From Planctomycetota bacterium (GTDB taxonomy: Bacteria; Planctomycetota; JAJSAM01; JAJVHW01), in contig CBDFJG010000001.1 in the NCBI GenBank assembly GCA_965248445.1, positions 558,131 through 622,130 of the forward strand: a stretch of 64,000 nt of DNA, given 5' to 3'. Position numbers and translations under genes: made by a program. Position 1 is the stretch's first letter, and every line of letters starts with the position of its first letter. This document shows, piece by piece, positions 1,942-31,463 of this stretch. The notes under the pieces are model-generated. The model was not told the origin of the DNA. It saw only the letters and a program-made list of their open reading frames with translations, and searched no databases.

Positions 1942-3442
1942 TGTAACCGTTCACCCCTTGACAGCGTGTGAGCCTCAGCGTGCGAGGGGCAGCGGGACCA
2001 TGACGGGCGGGTCGGCGCCGGTGAGGTGCGCGGCGACCGAGTCGGCGAGGAAGTCGAAGACTTGGTCGCCACGGCGTCGCAGCGTGGCCGCGGCGGTCAA
2101 CACGCGCTCGGCGAAGCGGAGTCCGCGAGCGGACTGGCTTCCGAAGGAGCCCTTGCGCCAGAGCACCGCTTTGCGGACCGCGCGCTCGGCGGCGTTGTTG
2201 GTCGGACTCACGTCCTGGGTCCGCGCATAGGTGAAGAGGGCGACCACGCGGGGGCGCAGATGGTTGGCCAGAGCCGAGTCGTCGTTCGCGATCAGTCGCT
2301 CGAGCCGTCCGCGCAGCACAGCGGCTTCGCCTTGCAGCCGGTCACGGTCGCCGTGCTCACCGAAGAGCCGGTAGCTGCGCATGACCGACTGCGCGATCAT
2401 GACGCCCTTGTTGCCGAAGCGGCGATGTTCTCGCGGGCCTTCGGCCAGCGCACGGAAGGCGCGCTCGATGTGCGCCCAGCAGAGCTGGCGGCGGGCAAGT
2501 GGGTGTGACTCGTAGGCACCCATCCGGTCGCTGATCACCGTGCCACCGAAGCGCCGCCCGATCAGCCGCCCTTTCGCCTTGGCACTGCGGCGGCGATCGA
2601 TCCCGAAGGCTGTGGCGTGCTCGCTCTCCGCCGCCCACAGCCAGCACACCCGGCCCCGTTCCTTCCACGACGTCTCGTCCACGTTGGCTCGCAGCGACGT
2701 GCGGACTGCCCCGAGGGCTTCGAGGTACGACGAGTGCAGAGCGTCACTGAGCCGACGCTCACAGTCGCTGATCTTGCCCAGCGACATCTTCACACCGAAG
2801 ATCTCACCGAGCAGCCGCTGCGTCTCCCGCACGCTCACGCGGTACACGCCGCGCAGCGCGCCGGCAAGTGTGGTCAGCCGCGGACCGAAGGCCCCGGTCG
2901 GCACGCCATCGGGCAGGACCGCCGTCGTGACCGCACGACAGCGCCGGCACCGCGCCTTGTGCAGCCGGTGCTCCCGCACCGTGACGAGCACGCGCGGGAG
3001 CACCGTCACCTGGTGCCGGTACGGATCGCCGATGCCCTGCTCGAGATCGTCGTGTCCGCACGCGTCGCAGAGGTCGGGACGGTGCTCCTTGGTCTCATCG
3101 ACGTTGGACGGATCCACCAGCTCGCGCGCCGTGCCCTCATGGCCCGGCTGTCCGCCCTGCTTGCGACCGCTACGCGGCCTTCGGCCGCGACGGCGCTTGG
3201 ACCACGCCGGGTCCGACGACGGAGGCCTCGAGCTGTTGCGGGAGTCACGCTTCAGACGCGACTCGAGCTCGTCGATGCGGCGCAGATGCTTCGCTTCGCG
3301 ACGCTCCAACTCCTCGATCCAGGCCAGAAGGCCCTCGACCATCGCCCGCAGATCCTCGTCCTGCCGCTCGCCCACAACATCTTGATCGACCGATGGCCGA
3401 ACGATCTGGATCCTGGCTCGCGACGAAGGGGTGAACGGTTAC
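1942..3442 (-). mobile_element. IS66-family single-ORF insertion sequence (type A) with 17-bp terminal inverted repeats
   Basis: GTAACCGTTCACCCCTT at 1942-1958 and its reverse complement AAGGGGTGAACGGTTAC at 3426-3442 flank the transposase ORF; no clean target-site duplication seen. Confidence 0.8.
1975..3375 (-). CDS. IS66 family transposase (TnpC-like)
   Basis: 466 aa; N-terminal coiled-coil/leucine zipper (LERREAKHLRRIDELESRLKRDSRNSSRPPSSD), CxxC...CxxC zinc-finger region, DDE-region motifs (VDETSW, LCWAHIER, NNAAERAVR) typical of IS66 transposases. Confidence 0.9.
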   Translation of the reverse strand: MGERQDEDLRAMVEGLLAWIEELERREAKHLRRIDELESRLKRDSRNSSRPPSSDPAWSKRRRGRRPRSGRKQGGQPGHEGTARELVDPSNVDETKEHRPDLCDACGHDDLEQGIGDPYRHQVTVLPRVLVTVREHRLHKARCRRCRAVTTAVLPDGVPTGAFGPRLTTLAGALRGVYRVSVRETQRLLGEIFGVKMSLGKISDCERRLSDALHSSYLEALGAVRTSLRANVDETSWKERGRVCWLWAAESEHATAFGIDRRRSAKAKGRLIGRRFGGTVISDRMGAYESHPLARRQLCWAHIERAFRALAEGPREHRRFGNKGVMIAQSVMRSYRLFGEHGDRDRLQGEAAVLRGRLERLIANDDSALANHLRPRVVALFTYARTQDVSPTNNAAERAVRKAVLWRKGSFGSQSARGLRFAERVLTAAATLRRRGDQVFDFLADSVAAHLTGADPPVMVPLPLAR

Positions 3443-3537
3443 CGTTCAGCGGCACCGTCTGGGACGTCAACAACCTCGGGTCGTTCAGCGTCTTCGAGGG
3501 CAACGACAACGGCTACCAGACGCTCTACCAGTAGTCC

Positions 3538-15449: not shown

Positions 15450-17114
15450 AATCGTTCACCAGCCGGGAATCTGAGCGGGCCGTCGTCTGTCTAAGTGCTC
15501 GTACTCGCTAGTACTTGCACCGACAGGAGCGCCGGCCCGATGACGACAGACTGTAGCCCGCAGGGGACCCTCTTCGCGGGCATCTGTGGACGCACCGCGG
15601 TGACGCGCTTCGACGCCGGTACCGTGACGAGCGACGGGGGCGTGCTGCTGCTCGAGCGGGTCGATCGTCGCATCGATCTGCTCTCGCGGTTTGCGCGCTG
15701 CTTCGGGGACCACCGGGACCCGCGTCGGGTCGAGCACACGGTCGGCCAGATGCTGCGTCAGCGGGTCTTCGGGCTGTGCGCGGGCTACGAGGATCTGGTG
15801 GACCACGACCATGTCGGCAAGGACCCGCTGTTTGCCGCGGCGTGCGGCAAGCGCGAGGGTGCTCTGGCCACGCACCCGACGCTCTCGCGGCTCGAGACCA
15901 CGCAGCTCGGCGCCACGGCACAGACGCGCTACGCCAAGATCGAGATGGACCAGGAGCGCGTGGACAGCGTGCTCAGCGACGTCTTCTGCGAGGCCATGGG
16001 GCCGGAGGATCCGGGCCTGCTCGTGCTGGACCTGGACCACTCCGACGTGCGGCTGCACGGCCGGCAGGAGGGCCGCTTCTTCCACGGCTACTACGGGCAC
16101 TACTGCTACCTGCCGCTGTACGTCTTCTGCGGCGAGCACCTCTTGCTCGCTCGGCTCCAGACCGCTGACAGAGATCCCGCGCGCGGAGTCGTGGACGAGC
16201 TCCGTGCGCTGGTCTTACGTCTGCGGCGCCGCTGGCCCCGGGCCAAGGTGCTCGTGCGCGCAGACTCGGGCTTTTGCCGCGAGGAGCTGATGGCCTGGTG
16301 CGAGGCCGCCGGCCACTTCTACCTGCTGGGCATGGCGCGCAATGAGCGCCTTGAGCGACACGTCGAAGACGCGCTCGATGAGGCCGCAGCCCGTGCCGTG
16401 CAGACCGGCCGAGCAGCCCGGGTCTTTCGCGACTTTGCCTGGACCACGCTGGGGAGCTGGAGCCAGAGGCGTCGCGTGGTCGCCAAGGCCGAGCACCTGC
16501 CGGGCGGCAAGCGCAATCCCCGCTTCGTGGTGACCAATCTGCCGCCTCGTAGCTGGAGCAGCAAGCGTCTCTACGAGCAGCTCTACTGCGCCCGGGGCGA
16601 GGCGGAGAATCGCATCAAGGAGCAGCAGCTCGAGCTCTTCGGCACCCGTCTGTCGGTGCACACGATGCAGGGCAACGCCGTGCGGATGGCCATGTCGGCC
16701 ATGGCCTACGTCCTGACCTGTGCGCTGCGACGCATCGGTCTCGCCGGCACCGAGATGGCGCGTGCGCAAGCCGGCACGATCCGCCTGCGGCTGCTCAAGA
16801 TCGGCGCGCTCGTGCGGATCACGACGCGCCGGATCTGGGTCTCGATGTCCTCGTCGTGGCCCTGGCAGCACGTCTTCGAGCGCTGCGCGCAACGACTGCT
16901 GGCATCCCCGAAGCCGACCTGACGTCCCGCCGCGCCGTCCGCCACACCACCGCCCGGCCTACGGTCTGCCCACACCGCAGAATCCGCGCCGTTTCGGCCG
17001 CTCACTCGCGTTGCCCTTGTGGCAACGACGACAGCATCCGCCCTCGCCTGGCCAAGATCTGACCCTGTGGACTCCGAAAGCACCGTCATCGCGACGTCTC
17101 GTGAACAGATGCGG
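15450..17114 (+). mobile_element. IS1380-family insertion sequence (boundaries approximate)
   Basis: Contains an intact IS1380-type transposase; terminal inverted repeats could not be identified by eye. Confidence 0.5.
15495..16922 (+). CDS. IS1380 family DDE transposase
   Basis: 475 aa (likely true start at ATG 15540); GYEDLVDHDHV and C-terminal RGEAENRIKE motifs typical of IS1380 transposases. Confidence 0.85.
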   Translation: MLVLASTCTDRSAGPMTTDCSPQGTLFAGICGRTAVTRFDAGTVTSDGGVLLLERVDRRIDLLSRFARCFGDHRDPRRVEHTVGQMLRQRVFGLCAGYEDLVDHDHVGKDPLFAAACGKREGALATHPTLSRLETTQLGATAQTRYAKIEMDQERVDSVLSDVFCEAMGPEDPGLLVLDLDHSDVRLHGRQEGRFFHGYYGHYCYLPLYVFCGEHLLLARLQTADRDPARGVVDELRALVLRLRRRWPRAKVLVRADSGFCREELMAWCEAAGHFYLLGMARNERLERHVEDALDEAAARAVQTGRAARVFRDFAWTTLGSWSQRRRVVAKAEHLPGGKRNPRFVVTNLPPRSWSSKRLYEQLYCARGEAENRIKEQQLELFGTRLSVHTMQGNAVRMAMSAMAYVLTCALRRIGLAGTEMARAQAGTIRLRLLKIGALVRITTRRIWVSMSSSWPWQHVFERCAQRLLASPKPT

Positions 17115-17386
17115 CTAAGTCCGATGAACAACGCCGCCGAGCGCGCGGTCCGCAAAGCGGTGCTCTGGCGCAAGGGCTCCTTCGGAAGCCAGTCCGCTCG
17201 CGGACTCCGCTTCGCCGAGCGCGTGTTGACCGCCGCGGCCACGCTGCGACGCCGTGGCGACCAAGTCTTCGACTTCCTCGCCGACTCGGTCGCCGCGCAC
17301 CTCACCGGCGCCGACCCGCCCGTCATGGTCCCGCTGCCCGTCGCACGCTGAGGCTCACACGCTGTCAAGGGGTGAACGGTTACCTG
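17115..17386 (+). mobile_element. 3'-terminal remnant of an IS66-A element
   Basis: Encodes the last ~75 aa of the IS66-A transposase (NNAAERAVRKAVLWRKGSFGSQSARGLRFAERVL...) followed by the terminal repeat AAGGGGTGAACGGTTAC at 17370-17386. Confidence 0.7.
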
Positions 17387-17790: not shown

Positions 17791-17957
17791 CGCGGAGATT
17801 CAGGTGAGAGGTCTGGGCCGAGAGGGGTTCATGCACCAACGCCACCCGGCAGCGGGTCGCGTAACTGGGCGACACTCTGGATCTCCTGCTCGGCATGGGC
17901 GGTCTCCTTGGAGAGTCGAATCTGCGGCGTGCGGTCCGCCGAAGCAAGGAAGGGTTC

Positions 17958-20120
17958 ATGCACCAACGCCACCTAAAGAGAGTAGGGCAACGTCTCGGGA
18001 AGTATCAGCTTCGCAAATTAATCGGGGCGGGTAGCACGGGGGCGATTTACAGAGCTTATGACGAGTCGCTTAGCCGAGAGGTCGCGATCAAAATATTGCT
18101 CAACGAGCGTGCGGAGAATAAGCTATACTTGGAACGCTTTCGATCCGAAGCCAAAGCGGCCGGCCAGCTTAGGGACCAGCATGTCGTTGCGGTCTATGAA
18201 CTCGGAGAAGATCGCGACACACATTTCATTGCGATGGAATTGGTCGATGGCGGGAGTGTCGCTGACGAACTCAAAAAGCGGGGCGCATTCCCGGTCACCG
18301 AAGCCACCCACATCACGGCAGATGCCTGCCGCGGCTTGAGTGCCGCTCATCAGCTTCGACTGGTGCATCGCGACATTAAACCGGAAAACCTTCTGAGAAC
18401 GAAGAACCAGCTAGTAAAGATTGCGGACTTTGGCCTGTCAAAGGGCGATTTCCGGAAGCACAACCAACTCACGATGACCGGCGAAATTCTCGGCACACCT
18501 TACTTCATGAGCCCGGAGCAATGCGAAGGTGCACCGGTAGACGAGCGAAGCGACATTTATTCGCTTGGGGCGACATACTACATGCTGCTCACGGGAGCTT
18601 ACCCCTATTCCGAAGCAACGACAATAATGCAAGTCATGCATTTGCATTGTTCGGACAAGGAGCTCGATCCCTGTCTTGTCCACGCGAAACTTCCTGATCA
18701 ATGCTCTGCAATCGTAAAAAGGGCGACTGCAAGGAGTCCGGACGACCGATACCAAACGGTCGATGACATGCTTGTCGATCTCGAGGAGCTTCTAGCCGAT
18801 CAGGACCGGATCTCCCAAAACACAAAGAAACGTGGAGAGACCAAGAGGAAGCGACAAGTTGTGATGGTATCGATCATTGTGGCCGTGGTGGTTGCCGGCG
18901 CCACCTTGCTCATGTTGAATGCGAATAGAACAACAGGAGAGGCAAGGCATGGCGAACGTTCTCCAGCCAGCCGCCGATTTTCCGGTGCGCTGTCACAAGG
19001 AGTCACCGCGGACACCGTTACCTTTGGCACGACGACGGCCTACTCCGGCACCGCCGGTGATCTTGGCCGCAACATAGTATACGGGATCAGAGCTTGTTTC
19101 AAGGCAGTTAATAAACAGGGAGGAATACACGGGCGGAAGCTGGAGCTTGTTGTGCTCGACGACGGATACGAGCCAGTTAGAGCATTGAACAATATACGGA
19201 TACTCTTTGAAGAGAAACAAATATTTGCAACGATCGGCAATGTTGGAACGCCGACGGCAAAGGCGATCCTCCCCTACACTATTGAGAATCGCTACCTGTT
19301 GTTCGCGCCATTCTCCGGTGCCAAGCTACTTCGGCGGGACCCACCGGACCGATACGTTTTTAATTTTCGCGCGAGCTACACCGAGGAGATTGCCGCCATG
19401 ATGCAATACCTCGTCGAATTGCGTAAGATTGATCCGCAAAAAATCGCGGTCTTTGTCCAGGACGATTCGTTTGGAGACAGTGGTTTTGATGCGGTCGTTC
19501 AAGCATTGAGCGAGCATGAAATTGAGGGGAAGGATGTATTGCGGGTTAAGTATCGACGCAACAGTGTCGAGGTGGAAGATGCCGTGAAGGAGATCGTGCG
19601 CGAAATTGAGAACGTCGATGCTATCGTCATGATTTCGACGTATGAGCCAACTGCCAAATTTGTCAGATCGGTCAAAGACAAGAGTAAGAAAGAAATACAT
19701 TTCGCAGCGGTGTCGTTTGTTGGCAGTCGCGGCTTGGCCGAAGAATTTCGCGAGATGGGCGCACGCTCACGCTATGGTGAGGGCGTCATTGTTACCCAGG
19801 TCGTGCCGCACTATGATGCGAAGGCTAAGGGGGTGAATCGCTATCGACAGTTACTGCGGGAACATTGCCCAGAAGCGCGGCCAAGTTTTGCTTCGTTGGA
19901 GGGTTTTATTGCAGCGGAGTGCCTTGTCAAAGGATTGGAAGCCGTGGGGCCGAACCTGACTACGGAACGTCTTGTCGATGCGCTTGAGAACATCAAGGAT
20001 TTGGATCTCGGAGTGGGGCCGCTCCTCAGCTTTGGACGATTTCGGCATCAGGCTTCAATGAAGATCTGGGGGACAATTCTAGACGACGAAGGCAACTACA
20101 AGAGTCTGAAGCTTGAATAA
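17958..20120 (+). CDS. Receptor-type Ser/Thr protein kinase fused to a periplasmic binding-protein (type 1, LivK-like) sensor domain
   Basis: 720 aa; kinase motifs GAGSTGAIYRA, AIK, HRDIKPENLL, DFGLS, SPEQ; transmembrane helix VVMVSIIVAVVVAGATLLML; C-terminal half resembles branched-chain amino-acid binding proteins. GC content is visibly lower than flanking DNA. Confidence 0.85.
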   Translation: MHQRHLKRVGQRLGKYQLRKLIGAGSTGAIYRAYDESLSREVAIKILLNERAENKLYLERFRSEAKAAGQLRDQHVVAVYELGEDRDTHFIAMELVDGGSVADELKKRGAFPVTEATHITADACRGLSAAHQLRLVHRDIKPENLLRTKNQLVKIADFGLSKGDFRKHNQLTMTGEILGTPYFMSPEQCEGAPVDERSDIYSLGATYYMLLTGAYPYSEATTIMQVMHLHCSDKELDPCLVHAKLPDQCSAIVKRATARSPDDRYQTVDDMLVDLEELLADQDRISQNTKKRGETKRKRQVVMVSIIVAVVVAGATLLMLNANRTTGEARHGERSPASRRFSGALSQGVTADTVTFGTTTAYSGTAGDLGRNIVYGIRACFKAVNKQGGIHGRKLELVVLDDGYEPVRALNNIRILFEEKQIFATIGNVGTPTAKAILPYTIENRYLLFAPFSGAKLLRRDPPDRYVFNFRASYTEEIAAMMQYLVELRKIDPQKIAVFVQDDSFGDSGFDAVVQALSEHEIEGKDVLRVKYRRNSVEVEDAVKEIVREIENVDAIVMISTYEPTAKFVRSVKDKSKKEIHFAAVSFVGSRGLAEEFREMGARSRYGEGVIVTQVVPHYDAKAKGVNRYRQLLREHCPEARPSFASLEGFIAAECLVKGLEAVGPNLTTERLVDALENIKDLDLGVGPLLSFGRFRHQASMKIWGTILDDEGNYKSLKLE

Positions 20121-20267
20121 CGCAAAAACCGAACTCATCGAACGCACGAGCTTCCCGACGAAGTCCGCGGGTTCGGCTTCGAGTTGCTCGCGGTCGCCGT
20201 GCGTCTTGTACTCGCGCACACCCCGCATCAGTGCCTGCGCGATGTCGAGTCCGGCCTCACCGAAGCA
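20120..20267 (-). pseudogene. Short remnant of an IS110-family transposase
   Basis: Minus-strand translation GYACFGEAGLDIAQALMRGVREYKTHGDREQLEAEPADFV parallels the IS110 copy at 24057-24842; abuts the IS1595 end. Confidence 0.3.
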
Positions 20268-20947
20268 TGCATATCCGGTTAATGACCGCGCCCACTACAT
20301 CTTGTGCTAGAAGGGCAGCGGGCTTGCAGGCTCGTCGGCGTAGACCTGTTCGTACGTGCGCGGCGGCGTCTTCGCCGCGATGCCGAGGACCGTCTGGAAC
20401 GCTGCCTGCGGCGTGCGTCTCCTGTTGAACCGGAACGTGAACTCGTCGAGATACCGCTGCAGGTGCTTCTCCGAGACCCGGCCGTGGTGCGTGCCTACGA
20501 GCCAGGTCTTGAGGTTGGAGAAGACCAGGTGGTGCAGGTGCCTCAGGACGTCCGCCTGCGCCGCGCCCATCATCGTGGACTCGATCCCGTGCTCGTAGCC
20601 GAGTTTCTCGACTGCGTCGTAGGTCTCGTGGCCGTCGGTCACGACGAGCGCCCCACGCTCGATGCTGTCCTTGACGAACGCCAGCAGGTGCGGCTTCGAT
20701 GAGGCCGGCACGTGGCGCAGCCGGATGCGTCCGGGCTGTGTGCCTCTCTTCGTCGGACGCACCTCGACCGCGCCGACCACGACGGCCTTGTCTGCCGCGG
20801 TGCGCTCCTCTCGGCCTCGAAACGGCGCTCCGATCAGCGCCTCGTCGACCTCGACGACGCCGAACAACTGCGCGCGCTCCGGCGCGACCATCGCAGATCG
20901 CAGTTTCTGGAGCATCTGGTACGCGGTCTCGTAGCGGGTCAGACCGA
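20268..20947 (-). mobile_element. IS1595-family element, 5'-truncated copy
   Basis: Terminal repeat GCATGCATATCCGGTTAATGACC at 20268-20290; transposase C-terminal 202 aa (ORF 20307..20915) near-identical to the full copy at 24838-25878; identity ends at about 20947. Confidence 0.75.
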
Positions 20948-22270
20948 GCTGTCGCTGGAGCCAGGGTCGAGCGGAACCTGTTCAGCGGCCAGCGGTCCGA
21001 CGACCCCGGCGTCGACATCGACGGGCCGAACGCCGTGGTGCAAAAGAACCGGTTCGTCTACGGCCTCGGCGTCGGCATCCAGGTCGATGCCGAGAACGGT
21101 GGAACGGCCACGGTCTGCAAGAATACGGTCGATTCGATGGCGGGCGACTCCTACATCCTGGTGGAGAACGCGGCGGGCCCCAGGGTCCTGAAGAACGTCT
21201 TCAAGAACGCTTACATTGGCGATAGCTACGACCACGTCATCGACCTCCAGTCCTGTGACGACGCCCTAGTCTCCGGCAACAAGATACTGACGATGAACTA
21301 CTCCATCGAGAGGGGGATCAACGTCGCGGGCGAACGGGCGACGGTAACGAAGAACTGCATCGAGAACGTGAATGGCTACTACTACGACCTGTATTGCATC
21401 TACGTGCAGGGGAACGACGCCGCGATCAGCCGCAACAAGATCCGGATCTGCGGCGCCGGGGAGGAATCCGACACGTATGCGATCTACGTTTCCGGGAACA
21501 CAGCGAGCGTCACGCGAAACGCGATCAACGACATAGCTGGTGGCGGCGACGAGATCTTCGGGGTCTATATCGACGGCGACGACGGCTCCATCGACGGCAA
21601 CCGGATCAGCCACCTGAACGAAGAGTACACGTACGCCATCTACTACACCGGCCACAGGGCCCGGATCGTCAAGAACAGGATCGCGCACGTGATGGCTGAC
21701 GGGGACATCTACGTCCGCGGCGATGACTTCCTGATCGAGAACAACACCGTCAGGGACGGAGCGTACTACTGCACCGGTATCTACACGCGCGGATCCGCCA
21801 CGATGCTCGGGGCGGCGGTGATCCAGCGGAACTCACTGAGCTTTCTCGGGTCGGACGGCATCGACCACGGAGGCAACGGGGTGGTCATCCGCGACAACAA
21901 GCTGAACCACCTGGCGGGGTTCGGGGTGATTGCGGACGGAAACGACAACGTGCTGATCGGTAACAGTGTGTCGGGCACGTACACGGCCGCTTTCCACATC
22001 GATGGCAACGACAACAGCGTGACGGGTTGTGCCGCCAGGGACAGCGACGGAGACGGGTTCAGGATCCAGGGCAACAACAACACGCTGGAGAACTGCACGG
22101 CGTCCAACTGCGCCGCCGAGGGCCTCGACAACAGCGGCACCGACACCAGCGCGATGAACTGCCGGTTCACCGGCTCCCGAATCGACTACGCCGGCAACAA
22201 CAACATGATCGACGACACCGGAACGACGTTCGGGACCGGAAGTGCCGCGACCGCGCCCGAGATCAACTGA
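20948..22270 (+). pseudogene. Right-handed parallel beta-helix repeat protein, 5' end replaced by the IS1595 fragment
   Basis: Repeats of the form hydrophobic-x-x-N-x-hydrophobic and G-N-x-hydrophobic (VTKNCIENV, ISRNKIRI, VTRNAIND, IVKNRIAHV, VIRDNKLNHL); the N-terminal region and signal peptide are missing upstream of 20948. Confidence 0.65.
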
Positions 22271-22394
22271 CCTCGGGACCATCGAGATCGGGACACCCGC
22301 GCGGACGGGTCCTGCGGATACCGAGATGGGATGAGATCCCGTCTTCTCGACCAAGGTTCTTAGAGCGTTGTTGGCGCTGCCCGCCTCGCCTGCG

Positions 22395-23926
22395 GTACCC
22401 GTTCAGGGTATGACGATCCGCGGCCTCAGCGCGTGATCGGGAGCGCGACGAGAGCCGGCGGCGAGCGGTTGTGCGCGAGTGCCGCGCTGACGTCTGCGAG
22501 GTAATCGAAGACGCTCTCGCCACGCTGGCGGAGCGTGGCGGTGACGGTCAGGATGCGCTCGACGAAGCGGAGTCCGCGCTCGCTCTGACTTCCGTGCGTT
22601 GCGCGTCTCCACAGGACCGGCTTGCGCACCGCGCGCTCAGCGGCGTTGTTCGTCGGGGAGACGCCAGGGACGTCGGCGAAGGTCCACAGAGCCTCCGCTC
22701 GGTCGAGCAGATGCCGAGTCGTTCCGCGTACTCGGCGGTGCTTGCTGTCTGCGCCGCGCACGAGCAGCGTCAGGAGTCGGTCCCATGTGAGACGCAGCTC
22801 ACGCCGCATGCGGTCGCGGTCCCCGTGCTCGCCGAAGTGACGCTGAGCTCGCATGACAGCCTGGGCGAGACGCACGGCCTGCTTGCCGAAGCGCCGGCCG
22901 CCGCGCGAGCCCTCGGCCAGCGCTCGAAAGTCCCTCTCGAGATGCGCCCAGCAGATCTGGCGGCGCTCGGTGGGATGCTGGTCGTAAGCGCCCATACGGT
23001 CGGTCACGAGGACGCCCCTGAAGCGCTTGCCCACGAGTCGCCGCATGGCCTTGGCGCTCCTGCGCCGATCGATACGATGGACCGTGGCGTGCTCACAGAC
23101 CGCGCTCCACAGCCAATGCAGCGTGCCACGACGCGACCACGGTGTCTCGTCTACATAGGCGACGCTGCTCGTGCGTACGGCCCCGAGGGCCTCGATGTGC
23201 GCTGAGGAGATGGCTCCCGACACCCGCTCCTCGATCGCACTGACCGTGCCCGGTGACATCGAGACGCCGATGACGTCACGCAACAGACGACTGGTCTCGC
23301 GCCGCGACAGGCGGAAGACGCCGACCAGAGCCGCGGTGAGCGCACAGAGTCGCGGGCCGAAGGGACTCGCCGTCACACCGCTTGGCAGCGAGGCAGTGGA
23401 CGTGGCGCCACAGTCCGTGCACCGTGCCCGGTGCAACCGGTGCTCGGTCACCTGGATCAGCCGTGGCGGGACCTCGAAGACCTGCTGGCGTGTCGGGGCG
23501 CGATCGATCGGGACGAGCACGTCGCTCCCACACGCGCTGCACTCGCGCGGGCGGTGGTCCTCTACGCCATCGACCTCGGACTCGTCCACGAGCTTGCGCG
23601 TCGCCCCTTTGTGGCCGGGCTGCGCACCCTGGCGCTTGTCCGACGGCGGCTTGCGCCGCCGCCGCTTCTTGGACCACGACGGATCCGAGGACGGTGGGCG
23701 CGAGGAGGTGCGGGAGTCCCGGCGAAGACGGCTCTCGAGATCGTCGATCCGTGCCGCCTGCCGCTCGATCACCTCCGCCTGCTCGGCAATCGTCTCGTCC
23801 CGAGCGTCCAGACGACGGGTCAGGCGCTCGACCAGATCACGCAGCTCATCGGTGCCCACATCCGATTCATCGACCGAACGGAAAGCGATCTGGATCCGAG
23901 CTCAGAACCAAGGGCTGAACGGGTAC
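22395..23926 (-). mobile_element. IS66-family single-ORF element (type B), copy 1, with 8-bp target-site duplication
   Basis: Terminal repeats GTACCCGTTCAGGGT (22395-) and AGGGCTGAACGGGTAC (-23926); flanked by direct repeats CGCCTGCG at 22387-22394 and 23927-23934. Confidence 0.9.
22426..23859 (-). CDS. IS66 family transposase
   Basis: 477 aa; identical protein to ORF 29963..31396; coiled-coil N-terminus, zinc-finger cysteines, NNAAERAVRKPVLWRR motif. Confidence 0.9.
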   Translation of the reverse strand: MGTDELRDLVERLTRRLDARDETIAEQAEVIERQAARIDDLESRLRRDSRTSSRPPSSDPSWSKKRRRRKPPSDKRQGAQPGHKGATRKLVDESEVDGVEDHRPRECSACGSDVLVPIDRAPTRQQVFEVPPRLIQVTEHRLHRARCTDCGATSTASLPSGVTASPFGPRLCALTAALVGVFRLSRRETSRLLRDVIGVSMSPGTVSAIEERVSGAISSAHIEALGAVRTSSVAYVDETPWSRRGTLHWLWSAVCEHATVHRIDRRRSAKAMRRLVGKRFRGVLVTDRMGAYDQHPTERRQICWAHLERDFRALAEGSRGGRRFGKQAVRLAQAVMRAQRHFGEHGDRDRMRRELRLTWDRLLTLLVRGADSKHRRVRGTTRHLLDRAEALWTFADVPGVSPTNNAAERAVRKPVLWRRATHGSQSERGLRFVERILTVTATLRQRGESVFDYLADVSAALAHNRSPPALVALPITR

Positions 23927-24837
23927 CGCCTGCGCGCGGGGACCGCGCTCGGCGGGCCGCGAGGACAGGTTGGGTGGTGCGACGCCTTCGCCTGTCGGCT
24001 CGGGCATGAATCCGGGGCGGCGGAGCGCGCGCGAGTTCGCTCGGAAGACTCGTGGCTCATGCGGGCACCTGCGTGGCCGACGTGGCCACGGGTGTGGGCC
24101 GGGGGACGAAGGGCTGTTTGTTTCGAGCCACCCAGTGGACGGCGACCAGGAGCTTTCGCATGGACGCGACGAGGGCGACCTTCGGGAGCTTGCCCTGGGA
24201 CCGAAGCCGTTCGTAGAAGGCGCGCAGCCAGGGGTTCCTGCGCACCGCGGTCAGGACGGGCATCCACAGGGCCCTGCGCAGCCGGGCGTGCCCGATGCGG
24301 GTGATGGCGGCGCGTTGGCCCTGGTTGCGTCCGGACTGCTTGAGTGCCGGGACGACCCCGATGTATGACGCCAGCGCCTTGGCGTCGCGGAAACGAGTGA
24401 TGTCGCCCAGCTCCGCGACGAGCCGCGCGGCGGTCTGTGGCCCGATGCCGTCGATGGTCGTGAGGAGCTTGCCGACCTCGTGGTGCTCCAGGGTTCCCCC
24501 GATCAGCTTCTCCAAGTCGCGAAGGCGCCGGCGCAGCAAGTCCAGATCCTCGCAGGCGTACCGGACCTGAGTGCGATAGGCCTCGGCGTGGTGGCGGCCC
24601 ACGGACGACTTGGCTGCACGGACCAGGTCTTGGGCAAGCTGCCGCCCGACTCGGTGACGTCCGTCGTAACGGAGCGCGGCGAGTCGCTTGACCGAGACAC
24701 CCACAAAGGCCTGCGCGGTGGGATGGCGGTTGAGCAGCGCCGTGGCGAGTTCGCTGTCGAGGGTGCGGACGTGGCGTGTGAACTCCGGGAAACCCAGGTC
24801 CACCAAGCGGTGAAGCCGGCGGACCCGGTCTCCAAAG

Positions 24838-25878
24838 CATGCATATCCGGTTGACGACCGTGACCCCAAGGGGTAGTGTCTCGGACGCATGCCGAAGCCG
24901 GGCTACCCTCGCAACATCGTGGAGTTCACGGAGCAGTTCGCGACGGAAGAGCAGTGCCTCGAGTACCTCGTGCAGTGTCGTTGGCCCGACGGGTTCCGCT
25001 GCCGCCGGTGCGGCGGCAAGAAGTACTGGCCCCGTCCAGATCGAAGAGCGATGCGGTGCGTGGGCTGCGACCTGATCACGTCGGTCACCGCGGGCACAGT
25101 GCTGCATCGCAGCCGGCTGCCGCTGAAGTCCTGGATGTGGGCCGCGTACTTGATGACGACGGACAAGCGGGGCGTCTCTGCGCTCGCACTCCAGCGACAG
25201 CTCGGTCTGACCCGCTACGAGACCGCGTACCAGATGCTCCAGAAACTGCGATCTGCGATGGTCGCGCCGGAGCGCGCGCAGTTGTTCGGCGTCGTCGAGG
25301 TCGACGAGGCGCTGATCGGAGCGCCGTTTCGAGGCCGAGAGGAGCGCACCGCGGCAGACAAGGCCGTCGTGGTCGGCGCGGTCGAGGTGCGTCCGACGAA
25401 GAGAGGCACACAGCCCGGACGCATCCGGCTGCGCCACGTGCCGGCCTCATCGAAGCCGCACCTGCTGGCGTTCGTCAAGGACAGCATCGAGCGTGGGGCG
25501 CTCGTCGTGACCGACGGCCACGAGACCTACGACGCAGTCGAGAAACTCGGCTACGAGCACGGGATCGAGTCCACGATGATGGGCGCGGCGCAGGCGGACG
25601 TCCTGAGGCACCTGCACCTGGTCTTCTCCAACCTCAAGACCTGGCTCGTAGGCACGCACCACGGCCGGGTCTCGAAGAAGCACCTGCAGCGGTATCTCGA
25701 CGAGTTCACGTTCCGGTTCAACAGGAGACGCACGCCGCAGGCAGCGTTCCAGACGGTCCTCGGCATCGCGGCGAAGACGCCGCCGCACGTACGAACAGGT
25801 CTACGCCGACGAGCCTGCAAGCCCGCTGCCCTTCTAGCACAAGATGTAGTGGGCGCGGTCATTAACCGGATATGCATG
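24838..25878 (+). mobile_element. IS1595-family element, full-length copy with 8-bp target-site duplication
   Basis: 22-bp imperfect terminal repeats CATGCATATCCGGTTGACGACC / GGTCATTAACCGGATATGCATG; direct repeat CTCCAAAG at 24830-24837 and 25879-25886. Confidence 0.85.
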
Positions 25879-25908
25879 CTCCAAAGTCCTGGACCACGCG
25901 ATCCCTGA
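24889..25908 (+). CDS. IS1595 family transposase (C-terminus frameshifted relative to the truncated copy)
   Basis: N-terminal zinc-ribbon CRWPDGFRCRRCGG...CVGCD; DDE-type core; a 2-bp difference near 25786 gives a different C-terminal tail that reads through the terminal repeat. Confidence 0.8.
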   Translation: MPKPGYPRNIVEFTEQFATEEQCLEYLVQCRWPDGFRCRRCGGKKYWPRPDRRAMRCVGCDLITSVTAGTVLHRSRLPLKSWMWAAYLMTTDKRGVSALALQRQLGLTRYETAYQMLQKLRSAMVAPERAQLFGVVEVDEALIGAPFRGREERTAADKAVVVGAVEVRPTKRGTQPGRIRLRHVPASSKPHLLAFVKDSIERGALVVTDGHETYDAVEKLGYEHGIESTMMGAAQADVLRHLHLVFSNLKTWLVGTHHGRVSKKHLQRYLDEFTFRFNRRRTPQAAFQTVLGIAAKTPPHVRTGLRRRACKPAALLAQDVVGAVINRICMLQSPGPRDP

Positions 25909-26630
25909 GTCTGACGAGCTCGCGCAGTTCCTCGGTGCCGGAGTCGGGCAGCCGCGTGGGCTCCGGGCGTTTCTGGCGAGCGAACCGGGCGAGCCCGAGG
26001 GCGTCGATGGCATCGGTCTTGGTCCGCTGCAGGTCCTCGCCGGCGAAGCGGTGGGTCCGCAGCGGATTGATCAGCACCATGGCGAAACCGCGCGAGAGAA
26101 GCTCCGCCGCCAAGTTGCGCCAGTAGTGCCCGGTCGCCTCCAAGGCCACGAGCACGTCTCGAGGGACGCCGAGCAACTCGAAGAGCTCCTCGTAGCCCTG
26201 TGCGTCCTCACCGAAGGCGGTGGGCCGCACCAGGATCTCTTCGTCCTCGTCCATCACCGCCACGACGTGCTTCTTCGAAGCGATGTCTATCCCCGCGTAG
26301 CGCATCGTGCACCTCCTGTCATGCGACGAGGAGGACCGGGAGCCTCGGAGCCGGCGACCGTACTCATCCTTGTTCATGCGAGGACGCGCGTCTGCGCGCC
26401 TCAGGATCCCGTCCGAGCGTGGGTCGCCGGTCGAGGGCGCCAATCTCATCTCCGAGGACTGCGCCTCGTGAAGGCCGCGGCGACCCTCTCCCGGCTCTCG
26501 TCGATCTCTGTCCACCGTAGGTCGCGGGCATGAGTGGACGTCATACAAGAAGGCCGGTCCCTGCCTCGGTGTAACCCGTAGCGGTTTCCAGAGGCGCTGA
26601 CGGGCTTGCGAGCCCGAGGAGGAACCGGCT

Positions 26631-27674
26631 ATGGCAAAGGCTACACGTTTCGTGATCGGGATGGACCTGGGCGACCGCGTGGTGCCTGTGTGTGTGCTGG
26701 ACCGCAAGACGGGCGAGATCGTGGGCGAAGGGCGCGTCGCGACGACGCGTGCTCGCCTGACGGAGTTCCTCGGCGAGATCGAGCGCTCGAAGGTGGTGAT
26801 GGAGAGCGGGACGCACTCGCCGTGGATCAGCCGCCTCGCCGAGGGTCTTGGTCACGACGTCATCGTGGCCGATGCGCGTCGGCTGCGCGCGGTGTGGGAC
26901 TCGCCCAAGAAGAGTGACCGCCGCGACGCGCTGGTTCTGGCGCAACTGGGGGCCGGGCACCCAGGGCTCCTTCATCCGGTGTCTCACCGGAGCGAGCGCG
27001 CACAGACCCACATGGTCGTGCTCCGAGCGCGCGAGCGTGTGGTCGACGCGCGTACGAAGTTGGTCAATGCCGCGCGGGGCTCGGTGAAGTCGCTCGGGTA
27101 CCGATTGCCCGCTTGCTCCGCTCCGAGCTTCCATCGCAAGGCACGCGAGGCGGTGCCGGAAACCCTCGTGGACGCCCTGGCCCCGTTGTTCGACGCGATC
27201 GCAGCGTTGACGGAGAGCATCGCGCGCTACGACCGCGAAGTCGAGCGTCTCGGCCGCGACGCGTATCCGGTGACACGACGCCTTCGCGAGGTACCCGGCT
27301 GCGGTCCCGTCACCGCGCTCGCCTACGTGCTCGTCGTCCACGACCCAGAGCGCTTCTCGCGCAATCGCGACGTGGGCGCGTACGTCGGTCTCGTCCCGCG
27401 CCAGGACCAGTCGGGCAAGATCGATCGCCAACTCAGGATCACGAAGTGCGGCGACCGGATGCTCCGCCGGCTGCTCGTGCAGTGCGCGCACTACGTGCTC
27501 GGACCACACGGGCCCGACAGCGACCTGAGACGCTGGGGTCTGGAGCTGGCGCAACGGGGCGGGAAGAACGCGAAGAAACGGGCGACCGTCGCGGTCGCCC
27601 GCAAGCTCGCCGTGCTCTTCCACGCTCTGTGGATGAAGGACCGCGCGTACGAGCCGCTCGCTCGAGCGGCGTGA
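26631..27674 (+). CDS. IS110 family transposase (second, different member)
   Basis: 347 aa; N-terminal RFVIGMDLGDR DEDD-type domain; C-terminal LREVPGCGPVTALAYV helix-hairpin-helix region typical of IS110/IS1111. Confidence 0.85.
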   Translation: MAKATRFVIGMDLGDRVVPVCVLDRKTGEIVGEGRVATTRARLTEFLGEIERSKVVMESGTHSPWISRLAEGLGHDVIVADARRLRAVWDSPKKSDRRDALVLAQLGAGHPGLLHPVSHRSERAQTHMVVLRARERVVDARTKLVNAARGSVKSLGYRLPACSAPSFHRKAREAVPETLVDALAPLFDAIAALTESIARYDREVERLGRDAYPVTRRLREVPGCGPVTALAYVLVVHDPERFSRNRDVGAYVGLVPRQDQSGKIDRQLRITKCGDRMLRRLLVQCAHYVLGPHGPDSDLRRWGLELAQRGGKNAKKRATVAVARKLAVLFHALWMKDRAYEPLARAA

Positions 27675-27971
27675 TGACCGACTGAACACCACGAACAACA
27701 CGGGAGTCTGATCGACCGAGCAACGCGCCCACCCGGGCGATGCCCATCTCCCAACTCGAAGGCGCGACGACTGCGGTGGCTGAACGGGCCCGGCCCCGGC
27801 CGAGGCCGCGTAACTGATGGCAGCGTCGCCCTCGAGCGGATGCCTCAACGTGCACCGGGTCCAAACGACCCCCTGACGAGTGCGGATGGATGCGTGCAGA
27901 GGGAGCCGGCATCGGCTGCGGTGGACGGATCGCCAAGTCGATCCGACGCCTTGACACAAGAGGCCTTCTCA

Positions 27972-29502
27972 TGGACGTTCAGCCATTGTGTCTGAGCCCG
28001 TATCCAGATCTCCGAGCGGGTTGACGATGAACACCATGTGGGCAAGGACGACCTCCGCGAGTTGATCGAGCGGCAGTCGCGGCGTCTCGCTGCCCAGGAC
28101 GAGAAGATCGCTGAGCAGCAGCGTGTCATCGAGGGGCAGCAGGAGGAGATCGCAGATCTTCGGAACCGCCTGAAGCGGGATTCGCGCAACTCGTCGCGGC
28201 CGCCGTCCTCGGACGCGCCGTGGTCCAAGCGTCGGCGCCGGCGAAAGCCCCCGTCGGACAAGAAGCAGGGCGGCCAGCTGGGTCACGAGGGCAGGACGCG
28301 GCGGCTGGTGGACGAGGACGAGGTCGATGACGTCGAGGACCACCGCCCGAGCGAGTGCTCGAGCTGCGGGGGCAAGGAGCTCGAGCCGCTGGCGCGTCGT
28401 CCGCACCGCCACCAGGTGTGGGAGATCCCGCGGGTGCTGGTCCCGGTGACCGAGCATCGTCTTCACCGTGCGCGCTGCCGGGAGTGCGGCGAGGTGGTGG
28501 CGGCGGCGTTGCCCGAGGGCGTCACCAAGAGCGCCTTGGGCCCGCGGCTGAGCGCGCTTGCGGCATCCTTGAGCGGCGTCTACCGCGTGAGCCGCCGCGA
28601 GGTCTCCCGGCTTCTCTCGGAGGTCTTCGGTGTGACGATGTCGCCCGGCACCGTGAGCGCCATCGAGGGACGGCTCGGTGAAGGGCTCTCGCTGCCGCAC
28701 ATCCAGGCGCTTGGCGCGGTGCGCACGAGCTCGGTGGCCAACGTGGACGAGACGCCGTGGAGCGAACGTGGCGAGCTGCGCTGGCTCTGGACCGCGGTGG
28801 CCGAAGGCGTTACCGCGCACCGCATCGACTCCCGCCGCAACGCGGCCGCGATGAAGCGCCTGATCGGCCGGCGCTATCGCGGGGTGCTGGTGACCGACCG
28901 CATGGGCGCCTACGACAAGCACCCGCTCAAGAGGCGCCAGCTCTGCTGGGCCCACTTGGAGCGCGACTTCCGCGCTCTCGCCGAAGGGCCGCGGGGCGGA
29001 TGGGTCTTCGGCAAGAAGGGCGTCGAGATCGCGGGGGCCGTGATGCGAGTGCACCGCGGCTTCCGCGGCCACGGCGACCGCACCCGGCTCGCGCGCCAGC
29101 TCCGCGATCCCAAGCGCCGGCTCCGCCGCCTGCTCGAACGCGGGGCACGCGCCAAGCACTGTCCGGTCAGGGGCATGTCCAAGCACCTGCTGGCGCGCTT
29201 CGATGCGCTCTTCACCTTCGCCGAGGTCCCCGACGTCGACCCTACGAACAACGCCGCCGAACGCGCGGTCCGCAAGCCGGTGCTCTGGCGCAAGGGCTGC
29301 TACGGCAGCCAGTCCGCTCGCGGCGAACGCTTCGTCGAGCGAGTGCTCACGGCCACCGCGACGCTGCGCCGCCGGGGGGGCAAGTCTTCGACTTCCTCGC
29401 CGACTCGCTCGCCGCGCACGTCTCCGGCGCCGACCCACCCGTCCTCGTCAGCCTGCCGATCCCGCGCTGAGGATCAGGGCCCCCGAAGGGCTGAACGGGT
29501 AC
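27972..29502 (+). mobile_element. IS66-family element (type C) with degenerate left end
   Basis: Right terminal repeat GAAGGGCTGAACGGGTAC at 29485-29502; left end only partially matches (ACGTTCAGCC near 27972); boundaries approximate. Confidence 0.55.
28038..29470 (+). pseudogene. IS66 family transposase with frameshift in a G-homopolymer
   Basis: Protein matches IS66 transposases until a 7-G run at 29374-29380; the expected C-terminus (GGQVFDFLADSLAAHVSGADPPVLVSLPIPR) continues in the +1 frame (ORF 28757..29470). Confidence 0.8.
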
Positions 29503-29931
29503 GTCGAGGTCGCCCGCAATGCGATCACCGGCACTCCGGCTCCTCGGCTCGTCCCTCAGGCCGCCTCGGCCTGAGGCTGGATACCCACGTGAACGGGTAC
29601 TCGCGCTCTACCGGAGACTCCAGGTGACTCGCCCGTTCTCTGCCCCCTGTTCCAGTATGACGACCGACATCAATGGCGACTTCAGTCGGACGTCTCGACT
29701 GTCCACAATCTCACCGCCCGCGATCGTCTGTGACACCGTCTCCTTGTCCAGCGTGTTGAAGTAGACGGTCAACCGCGAACCAGCCGGTTCGGGAGCGTCA
29801 TTCCGTACGACGACCGCCCGTCCTCGTCGAGGGAGGTTCGGGGTCGATCTGATCCAGATCCGGAACGTCTTCGCGCGCGACAGCGCTGAGGTGGTCGTGA
29901 TGTCGCGGGCGGTGTCGGGCGTTCCATCCAC

Positions 29932-31463
29932 GTACCCGTTCAGGGTATGACGATCCGCGGCCTCAGCGCGTGATCGGGAGCGCGACGAGAGCCGGCGGCG
30001 AGCGGTTGTGCGCGAGTGCCGCGCTGACGTCTGCGAGGTAATCGAAGACGCTCTCGCCACGCTGGCGGAGCGTGGCGGTGACGGTCAGGATGCGCTCGAC
30101 GAAGCGGAGTCCGCGCTCGCTCTGACTTCCGTGCGTTGCGCGTCTCCACAGGACCGGCTTGCGCACCGCGCGCTCAGCGGCGTTGTTCGTCGGGGAGACG
30201 CCAGGGACGTCGGCGAAGGTCCACAGAGCCTCCGCTCGGTCGAGCAGATGCCGAGTCGTTCCGCGTACTCGGCGGTGCTTGCTGTCTGCGCCGCGCACGA
30301 GCAGCGTCAGGAGTCGGTCCCATGTGAGACGCAGCTCACGCCGCATGCGGTCGCGGTCCCCGTGCTCGCCGAAGTGACGCTGAGCTCGCATGACAGCCTG
30401 GGCGAGACGCACGGCCTGCTTGCCGAAGCGCCGGCCGCCGCGCGAGCCCTCGGCCAGCGCTCGAAAGTCCCTCTCGAGATGCGCCCAGCAGATCTGGCGG
30501 CGCTCGGTGGGATGCTGGTCGTAAGCGCCCATACGGTCGGTCACGAGGACGCCCCTGAAGCGCTTGCCCACGAGTCGCCGCATGGCCTTGGCGCTCCTGC
30601 GCCGATCGATACGATGGACCGTGGCGTGCTCACAGACCGCGCTCCACAGCCAATGCAGCGTGCCACGACGCGACCACGGTGTCTCGTCTACATAGGCGAC
30701 GCTGCTCGTGCGTACGGCCCCGAGGGCCTCGATGTGCGCTGAGGAGATGGCTCCCGACACCCGCTCCTCGATCGCACTGACCGTGCCCGGTGACATCGAG
30801 ACGCCGATGACGTCACGCAACAGACGACTGGTCTCGCGCCGCGACAGGCGGAAGACGCCGACCAGAGCCGCGGTGAGCGCACAGAGTCGCGGGCCGAAGG
30901 GACTCGCCGTCACACCGCTTGGCAGCGAGGCAGTGGACGTGGCGCCACAGTCCGTGCACCGTGCCCGGTGCAACCGGTGCTCGGTCACCTGGATCAGCCG
31001 TGGCGGGACCTCGAAGACCTGCTGGCGTGTCGGGGCGCGATCGATCGGGACGAGCACGTCGCTCCCACACGCGCTGCACTCGCGCGGGCGGTGGTCCTCT
31101 ACGCCATCGACCTCGGACTCGTCCACGAGCTTGCGCGTCGCCCCTTTGTGGCCGGGCTGCGCACCCTGGCGCTTGTCCGACGGCGGCTTGCGCCGCCGCC
31201 GCTTCTTGGACCACGACGGATCCGAGGACGGTGGGCGCGAGGAGGTGCGGGAGTCCCGGCGAAGACGGCTCTCGAGATCGTCGATCCGTGCCGCCTGCCG
31301 CTCGATCACCTCCGCCTGCTCGGCAATCGTCTCGTCCCGAGCGTCCAGACGACGGGTCAGGCGCTCGACCAGATCACGCAGCTCATCGGTGCCCACATCC
31401 GATTCATCGACCGAACGGAAAGCGATCTGGATCCGAGCTCAGAACCAAGGGCTGAACGGGTAC
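29932..31463 (-). mobile_element. IS66-family element (type B), copy 2, no target-site duplication
   Basis: Same terminal repeats and same internal ORF set as copy 1; flanks CCATCCAC and ACGCGCGC do not match; right end abuts a truncated IS1380 transposase. Confidence 0.85.
29963..31396 (-). CDS. IS66 family transposase
   Basis: 477 aa, identical to ORF 22426..23859. Confidence 0.9.
   Translation of the reverse strand: MGTDELRDLVERLTRRLDARDETIAEQAEVIERQAARIDDLESRLRRDSRTSSRPPSSDPSWSKKRRRRKPPSDKRQGAQPGHKGATRKLVDESEVDGVEDHRPRECSACGSDVLVPIDRAPTRQQVFEVPPRLIQVTEHRLHRARCTDCGATSTASLPSGVTASPFGPRLCALTAALVGVFRLSRRETSRLLRDVIGVSMSPGTVSAIEERVSGAISSAHIEALGAVRTSSVAYVDETPWSRRGTLHWLWSAVCEHATVHRIDRRRSAKAMRRLVGKRFRGVLVTDRMGAYDQHPTERRQICWAHLERDFRALAEGSRGGRRFGKQAVRLAQAVMRAQRHFGEHGDRDRMRRELRLTWDRLLTLLVRGADSKHRRVRGTTRHLLDRAEALWTFADVPGVSPTNNAAERAVRKPVLWRRATHGSQSERGLRFVERILTVTATLRQRGESVFDYLADVSAALAHNRSPPALVALPITR

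Follow-up and report, generated by a model that had tools for sequence, protein, structure and literature searches.

Two identical copies of an insertion sequence

The window analyzed here is a 64,000-nucleotide stretch of the genome of a Planctomycetota bacterium (assembly GCA_965248445.1, contig CBDFJG010000001.1, positions 558,131 to 622,130), and all coordinates below refer to it. Our subject is an insertion sequence (IS) that we assign to the ISBst12-type branch of the IS66 family and that occurs twice in the window, as copy 1 at 22395 to 23926 and copy 2 at 29932 to 31463, both on the minus strand. Copy 1 lies between genes, 124 bp beyond the stop of a beta-helix/NosD-like gene (which ends at 22270) and, on its other side, 123 bp beyond the stop (24057) of the C-terminal half of an IS110-family transposase gene. 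Each copy holds one long open reading frame (ORF), a transposase gene of 477 amino acids (aa) with a GTG start and a third-codon-position GC content (GC3) of 0.82, which is found at 22426 to 23859 (minus strand) in copy 1 and, with identical sequence, at 29963 to 31396 (minus strand) in copy 2.

An initial annotation of this DNA had proposed a second, identical copy of the element and suggested a base-by-base alignment as a check. In that alignment, the two copies were identical at 1,532 of 1,532 positions, and the shared identity ran 0 bp past either end. Because identity stops exactly at the termini, segmental duplication is ruled out as the origin of the pair. The element is bounded by a perfect 12-bp inverted repeat, GTACCCGTTCAG, which in copy 1 occupies 22395 to 22406 on the plus strand (IRR, the right inverted repeat, distal to the transposase start) and 23915 to 23926 on the minus strand (IRL, the left inverted repeat, proximal to it).

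Copy 1 is flanked on both sides by the same 8 bp, CGCCTGCG, at 22387 to 22394 and 23927 to 23934. The match is exactly 8 bp long, as the next outward base is mismatched on both sides. From base composition, an 8/8 match at a fixed position would arise by chance with a probability of 4.1e-5; of 62,452 window positions, only 2 gave an 8/8 match over a gap of 1,532 bp, one of them being the copy 1 site itself. Without the element, the site would read ...GCCCGCCT-CGCCTGCG-CGCGGGGACC... In copy 2 and in every relative the element ends at GTA...TAC, which makes the flanking 8-mers target DNA and rules out that they belong to the element. Copy 1 is a recent, simple insertion, as the initial annotation had read from the duplication, and its target was intergenic DNA. 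That annotation had also singled out two outcomes as fatal to its proposal, and both were looked for: the copies have not diverged, and the 8-mers are not part of the element.

The element leaves just 67 bp on the upstream side of the ORF and 31 bp on its downstream side, so that neither tnpA nor tnpB could be accommodated and a canonical three-ORF IS66 element is excluded; the earlier description of a lone TnpC-like ORF was therefore accurate. A scan of the element for promoter and terminator consensus sequences found nothing.

A DDE transposase of the single-ORF ISBst12 group

Consistent with the family first proposed for it, the transposase matched Pfam DDE_Tnp_IS66 (PF03050; E 5.8e-32, 111.7 bits against a cutoff of 23.1) and NCBIfam transpos_IS66 (NF033517; 294.6 bits against a cutoff of 180), the latter over 386 of 387 model positions. 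Members of the IS66 family are defined by a conserved D, D, E triad whose last two residues enclose a CwAH motif. We aligned the query with 21 relatives that are 54 to 85% identical to it and found that D237 (in DET), D287 (in TDR) and E408 (in NNAAER) are invariant across the 22 sequences, together with C303-W304-A305-H306. The four cysteines of a CxxC...CxxC zinc finger (C107/C110/C147/C150), located upstream of the catalytic core, are likewise invariant. At the N terminus, in the region of a long helix, the protein matched DUF6444, while the other IS66 N-terminal domains gave no match in the Pfam scan.

An AlphaFold model built from the same alignment (mean predicted local distance difference test score, pLDDT, 80.9) contains a long N-terminal helix (residues 3 to 48), a disordered basic linker (48 to 87) and a core of beta-strands from residue 233, with a helical block occupying the interval between D287 and E408. 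The triad and the CWAH residues map to the predicted RNase-H-like core and its helical insertion. Among solved structures, the best Foldseek match to this model was the transposase of ISCth4, an IS256-family element (E 3e-5), followed by Hermes and retroviral integrases; a sequence-level search of the PDB with the family profile returned only noise. The ISCth4 protein likewise has an RNase-H-like DDE core in which a helical insertion separates the second Asp from the Glu (Foldseek probability 1.00), but it belongs to a different family, is 12 to 14% identical in sequence and superposes with a template modeling (TM) score of about 0.35 to 0.40. Together, the domain matches, invariant residues, predicted model and structural matches indicate that the 477-aa protein is a DDE transposase with an RNase-H fold and a helical insertion domain.

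A plausible course of transposition can be drawn from the family and the predicted fold. The transposase would bind both ends of the element, probably through its zinc-finger and helix-turn-helix region, and would dimerize through the long N-terminal helix. Cleavage would occur at the terminal GTA...TAC, with the 3' ends joined to target strands at positions staggered by 8 bp, and repair of the gaps would produce an 8-bp duplication such as that at copy 1. By analogy, the route is likely to be copy-and-paste, with the donor copy staying where it is.

Within the IS66 family, the ISBst12 group is defined by its single-ORF architecture (PMC12898284, PMC8024623). The element described here has a single ORF homologous to TnpC and a length, 1,532 bp, that falls within the range of about 1.35 to 1.9 kb for the group, and both the GTA-type terminal inverted repeats and the 8-bp target-site duplication expected of an IS66-family member are present at copy 1. 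Transposition in this single-ORF branch was first reported experimentally only in 2026, for ISDge4 of Deinococcus geothermalis, an ISBst12-group element with one 449-aa transposase ORF, termini GTAACTGCTCAGCA and an 8-bp direct repeat, CCTCGATG (PMC12898284). As judged from descriptions of ISBst12 and ISDge4 rather than from sequence comparison, our element resembles both in having a single TnpC-homologous ORF, no tnpA or tnpB, a length of about 1.5 kb and 8-bp direct repeats. Its termini, like those of ISDge4, start with GTA and contain TCAG, but they begin GTAC rather than GTAA.

Two further elements, which we checked directly, have the same layout. ISUnCu16 (1,531 bp) and ISKpn15 (1,534 bp) are nearly equal to our element in length, and each has a single ORF, of 472 to 473 aa. 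ISUnCu16 has termini GTAAC(G/C)GTTCACC and a perfect 8-bp duplication, AACTGAGT, and splits a sensor gene; ISKpn15 has termini GTA(A/T)(G/C)TATTCACC and a perfect 8-bp duplication, GGCTGCAT. Unlike the element studied here, both reside on Aeromonas (gammaproteobacterial) plasmids, and their transposases are only 35 to 36% identical to ours. Canonical IS66 and IS679, in turn, share with it the DDE_Tnp_IS66 domain with CWAH, the zinc finger, the GTA-type termini and the 8-bp duplication, but they carry tnpA, tnpB and tnpC in about 2.5 to 2.7 kb, whereas our element lacks the first two genes and is about 1 kb shorter.

The transposase family is large, with 2,189 matches at E<=1e-20 among the scored candidates. 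DDE_Tnp_IS66 was present in 120 of the 120 listed matches and DUF6444 in all except three that were truncated; the closest distinct relative, leaving aside a truncated form of the same transposase (P0002, described below), is 85% identical. No match to the element turned up when the plasmid collection was searched with blastn, and the best match in a scan of the searchable genome collection was unrelated (27% identical).

Relatives are encoded at no fewer than 590 (>=590) metagenomic loci, 80 of which (L002 to L081; proteins 35 to 45% identical) we fetched and searched for ends with an approach anchored on the terminal motif. Fifty-six could be evaluated at both ends and flanks. Their termini follow GTA-N-(C/G)-CGTTCA-(G/C), mostly GTAA, and their sizes, 1.47 to 1.75 kb, mark them as single-ORF elements. 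Four loci had perfect 8-bp duplications (CAGAACAG in L009, CTTCGTCC in L019, CCATCATC in L047 and CAAAACAC in L065), compared with a chance expectation of about 0.002, and two more (L016 and L037) matched at 7 of 8 positions. Duplications were concentrated on contigs of at least 4 kb (5 of 11, against 1 of 45 on shorter contigs; Fisher p 7e-4), which suggests that the flanks of a multi-copy IS on short metagenome contigs are often chimeric, joined through collapsed repeats.

The proposed history of copy 2 and the probable activity of the element

Copy 2 lies in the same orientation as copy 1 and has no target-site duplication, its flanks being CCATCCAC and ACGCGCGC. These flanks are unrelated to each other, as had been noted at the outset. 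As the outer flanks of the pair (CGCCTGCG and ACGCGCGC) are also unlike, the two copies do not form a composite transposon.

On its right, copy 2 abuts the truncated IS1380-family transposase gene that the initial annotation had pointed out, a remnant encoding the C-terminal 130 aa at 31466 to 31858 (plus strand). This flank matches Pfam DDE_Tnp_1_4 at model positions 307 to 432 of 435 (E 6e-40), and the remnant is 46% identical to residues 343 to 472 of an intact IS1380-family transposase encoded at 15495 to 16922. The N-terminal ~340 aa of the cut transposase are absent from the window, which contains no other IS1380 fragment. The left flank (29503 to 29931) is made up of a terminal remnant, 98 bp long, of a further IS66-type element (29503 to 29600, with its terminus GTGAACGGGTAC at 29589 to 29600) and 331 bp without a recognizable coding frame; it showed no similarity to IS1380 at lenient thresholds (best E 0.05) and no Pfam match. 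With IS1380 sequence on the right and none on the left, copy 2 sits at a breakpoint.

A later rearrangement, as proposed earlier, is a likely reading of copy 2, but not in the form proposed, namely between the two copies of the window. Recombination between copies 1 and 2 is ruled out, since copy 1 has kept its duplication, the copies are in direct orientation and the interval between them is intact. As the two were not each other's partners, the account has to call on a third copy, on a deletion that the IS caused next to itself (an adjacent deletion) or on an assembly misjoin. Copy 2 would first have entered an IS1380-family transposase gene, and its left side would have been replaced afterwards, most likely through homologous recombination with another direct copy that is now lost, or else through an adjacent deletion. 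In both cases the IS1380 gene would lose its first ~340 codons, and one of the two 8-bp repeats would disappear with them.

The explanation with the best precedent is that two direct copies recombined and the DNA between them was lost, by analogy with Agrobacterium, in which recombination between two direct IS66 copies has been documented to leave a single copy with two unlike, hybrid 8-bp flanks (PMC6778807). The unlike flanks of copy 2 parallel those of the canonical IS66 left behind by that inter-copy recombination (PMC6778807). On the sequence of copy 2 itself, adjacent deletion fits equally well: its endpoint coincides exactly with the IS terminus, and the missing DNA takes in two-thirds of the IS1380 gene, counted from its 5' end. 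Adjacent deletions, the outcome of one-ended or intramolecular transposition, are produced by several families of DDE elements. In the literature that we covered, no such activity was found documented for IS66-family elements, in contrast to the recombination of direct copies, and we regard adjacent deletion as a credible but clearly less probable route to the loss of the duplication.

A third account would place the event in the assembly, with the left and right flanks of different copies joined through the identical 1.5-kb repeat. A transposase gene recorded identically on at least four contigs does mark a multi-copy repeat prone to misjoins, and the mostly unrelated flanks of relatives on short metagenomic contigs fit such chimeras. 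We nevertheless consider this account improbable. The source contig is long (654,057 bp), which suggests a long-read or well-resolved assembly, and truncated elements other than repeats of the IS studied here abound in the 16 kb around copy 2. Nor can a misjoin explain the damaged end of a diverged relative (Y), the 98-bp remnant, a truncated IS1595 copy or an end fragment of a second diverged relative (X), all of which lie in the same region and, apart from the remnant, are described in the next section. Recombination between direct copies remains our preferred history for copy 2.

The initial annotation had also taken the identity of the copies as a sign of current activity. Copy identity alone is weak evidence of activity, but the argument is strengthened by database evidence for further copies elsewhere in the genome, including one nested in another. 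A 477-aa protein identical to the window transposase save for start-codon notation (P0121) is recorded on 4 contigs. In addition, a 400-aa protein on an 898,527-bp contig (P0002) matches the transposase over residues 1 to 393, differing only in the start residue (V, from GTG, in the window). After residue 393 it reads TYPFSPWF and then stops, and this tail corresponds to the first two bases of codon 393 joined to the element's transposase-proximal end, GTACCCGTTCAGCCCTTGGTTCTGA. As the tail is encoded by the element's own end, one copy has inserted into another.

With an intact ORF, intact ends, a perfect duplication and 100% identity, recent transposition is the best reading of these data, and the element is probably still active in the source genome. 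It is very unlikely that the copies are identical through gene conversion, or are old but constrained, and that the element is inactive: direct repeats 7.5 kb apart would permit conversion in principle, with nothing else specific in its favor, but the identity spans all 1,532 bp including the non-coding ends, neither the ORF nor any catalytic residue is damaged, the duplication at copy 1 is perfect, further identical copies (one nested in another) lie on other contigs, and homogenization has not reached the diverged elements X and Y of this region.

Taken together, these data lead us to view the element, with high confidence, as an IS66-family insertion sequence of the single-ORF ISBst12 group, with the mechanism, copy histories and probable activity set out above. 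Several observations weigh against this overall account. The zf-IS66 (PF13005) match in the transposase is marginal (28.4 bits against a cutoff of 27.3). The window has four full-length IS66-type elements, and a target-site duplication is present only at copy 1, while copy 2, X and Y lack one, and most of the short metagenomic contigs with relatives carry unrelated 8-bp flanks. Part of the identity between the copies could stem from consensus polishing of repeats or from gene conversion, and the history of copy 2 is one that we infer.

The element is a new member of a known group, ordinary and probably active, and its single-ORF layout is a hallmark of ISBst12 elements rather than an anomaly. 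It would merit a new IS name, as its transposase is 85% identical to the nearest database protein and 35 to 36% identical to those of ISUnCu16 and ISKpn15, the annotated, named elements that came closest in the plasmid collection. Its value lies mainly in annotation and it opens no new question, but it offers a clean example, with exact ends, an exact 8-bp duplication and self-nesting, for a little-studied branch of the family.

An IS mosaic beside a tRNA-Arg gene

Both copies lie in a mosaic of mobile elements that extends from 15.4 to 31.9 kb and includes the intact IS1380-family element, an X-type end fragment, truncated and full IS1595 copies, a second IS110 element, Y, copy 2 and the IS1380 remnant. 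The full IS1595-family element (~24840-25880; transposase 24889 to 25908) has its own 8-bp duplication, CTCCAAAG, and splits the IS110 gene next to copy 1 into a C-terminal half (Transposase_20, 24057 to 24890, minus strand) and an N-terminal half (DEDD_Tnp_IS110, 25862 to 26707, minus strand); it is a clean nested insertion. A second IS1595 copy, truncated at its 5' end, lies at 20264 to 20960 in inverted orientation and is 99% identical to 25189 to 25880. As this inverted pair brackets 4.2 kb that contain copy 1, the segment could invert by recombination.

Element Y (27971 to 29502, plus strand; 1,532 bp) is a diverged relative of the studied element, with 69% nucleotide and 67% aa identity and no duplication. 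In its transposase-proximal repeat, ATGGA stands in place of the first 5 nucleotides, GTACC; a frameshift close to aa 447 causes its ORF to read through the end of the element, and it directly adjoins the 98-bp end remnant, which derives from a fourth IS66-type element. Element X (1943 to 3442, minus strand; 1,500 bp) is a diverged ISBst12-type relative (67% nucleotide and 56% aa identity), also without a duplication; its ends form a perfect inverted repeat of 17 bp, GTAACCGTTCACCCCTT, and its 466-aa ORF is intact. A 266-bp X-type end fragment at 17118 to 17383 (plus strand), beside the intact IS1380-family element, is 99% identical to 1943 to 2208, in inverted orientation. The X transposase is 99% identical to a protein (P0033) that belongs to a cluster of 30 member sequences on contigs of 2.04, 1.81 and 0.90 Mb, and X is probably the most abundant IS of the source genome.

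An IS66-type repeat is broken just before the motif CGTTCAG at two places in the window, 3443 to 3449 and 27976 to 27982: the right flank of X starts CGTTCAGC, and the damaged end of Y resumes at CGTTCAG. These breaks could be a coincidence or could reflect a preferred breakpoint or target within the repeats. Elsewhere in the same genome, on the 2.04-Mb contig, lies a truncated transposase of a sister element, 82% identical (P0122). It starts MNGY, the translation of ATGAACGGGTAC, which is an IS66-type terminus, and it marks another insertion of an IS into an IS.

Just beyond the mosaic lies a tRNA-Arg(ACG) gene (34809-34885, minus strand). Its 3' 32 bp (34805 to 34836) are repeated perfectly 1.07 kb away, at 33738 to 33769, in what looks like an att-type direct repeat from an integrated element. 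The mosaic and fragments of kinase genes lie on the repeat side of the tRNA gene, an arrangement that suggests a decayed genomic island. The host appears to belong to a poorly sampled, high-GC lineage; the ArgG protein encoded in the window matches a protein of a 654,057-bp contig at 100% identity, and its nearest named relatives are from Planctomycetes metagenome-assembled genomes, at 67% identity. The studied element marks a recombination-prone, IS-saturated stretch beside tRNA-Arg in such a bacterium.

It is conceivable, though we think it doubtful, that ISBst12-type elements here preferentially land in or next to other IS elements, building IS "graveyards" that, through recombination and deletions, would reshape the island by tRNA-Arg. 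Examples of such proximity are the self-nested copy, the truncated sister transposase, copy 2 in the IS1380 gene, and X and Y beside IS1380 and IS110 sequences. If real, the preference would imply targeting of IS DNA or of some structural feature of it, and not mere survival of insertions in dispensable DNA.

The mosaic also contains, at 17895 to 20120 (plus strand), a gene for a 741-aa protein that joins a Ser/Thr protein kinase with a periplasmic-binding-protein domain, and a truncated kinase fragment (33583 to 34146, minus strand) adjoins the tRNA-Arg repeat.

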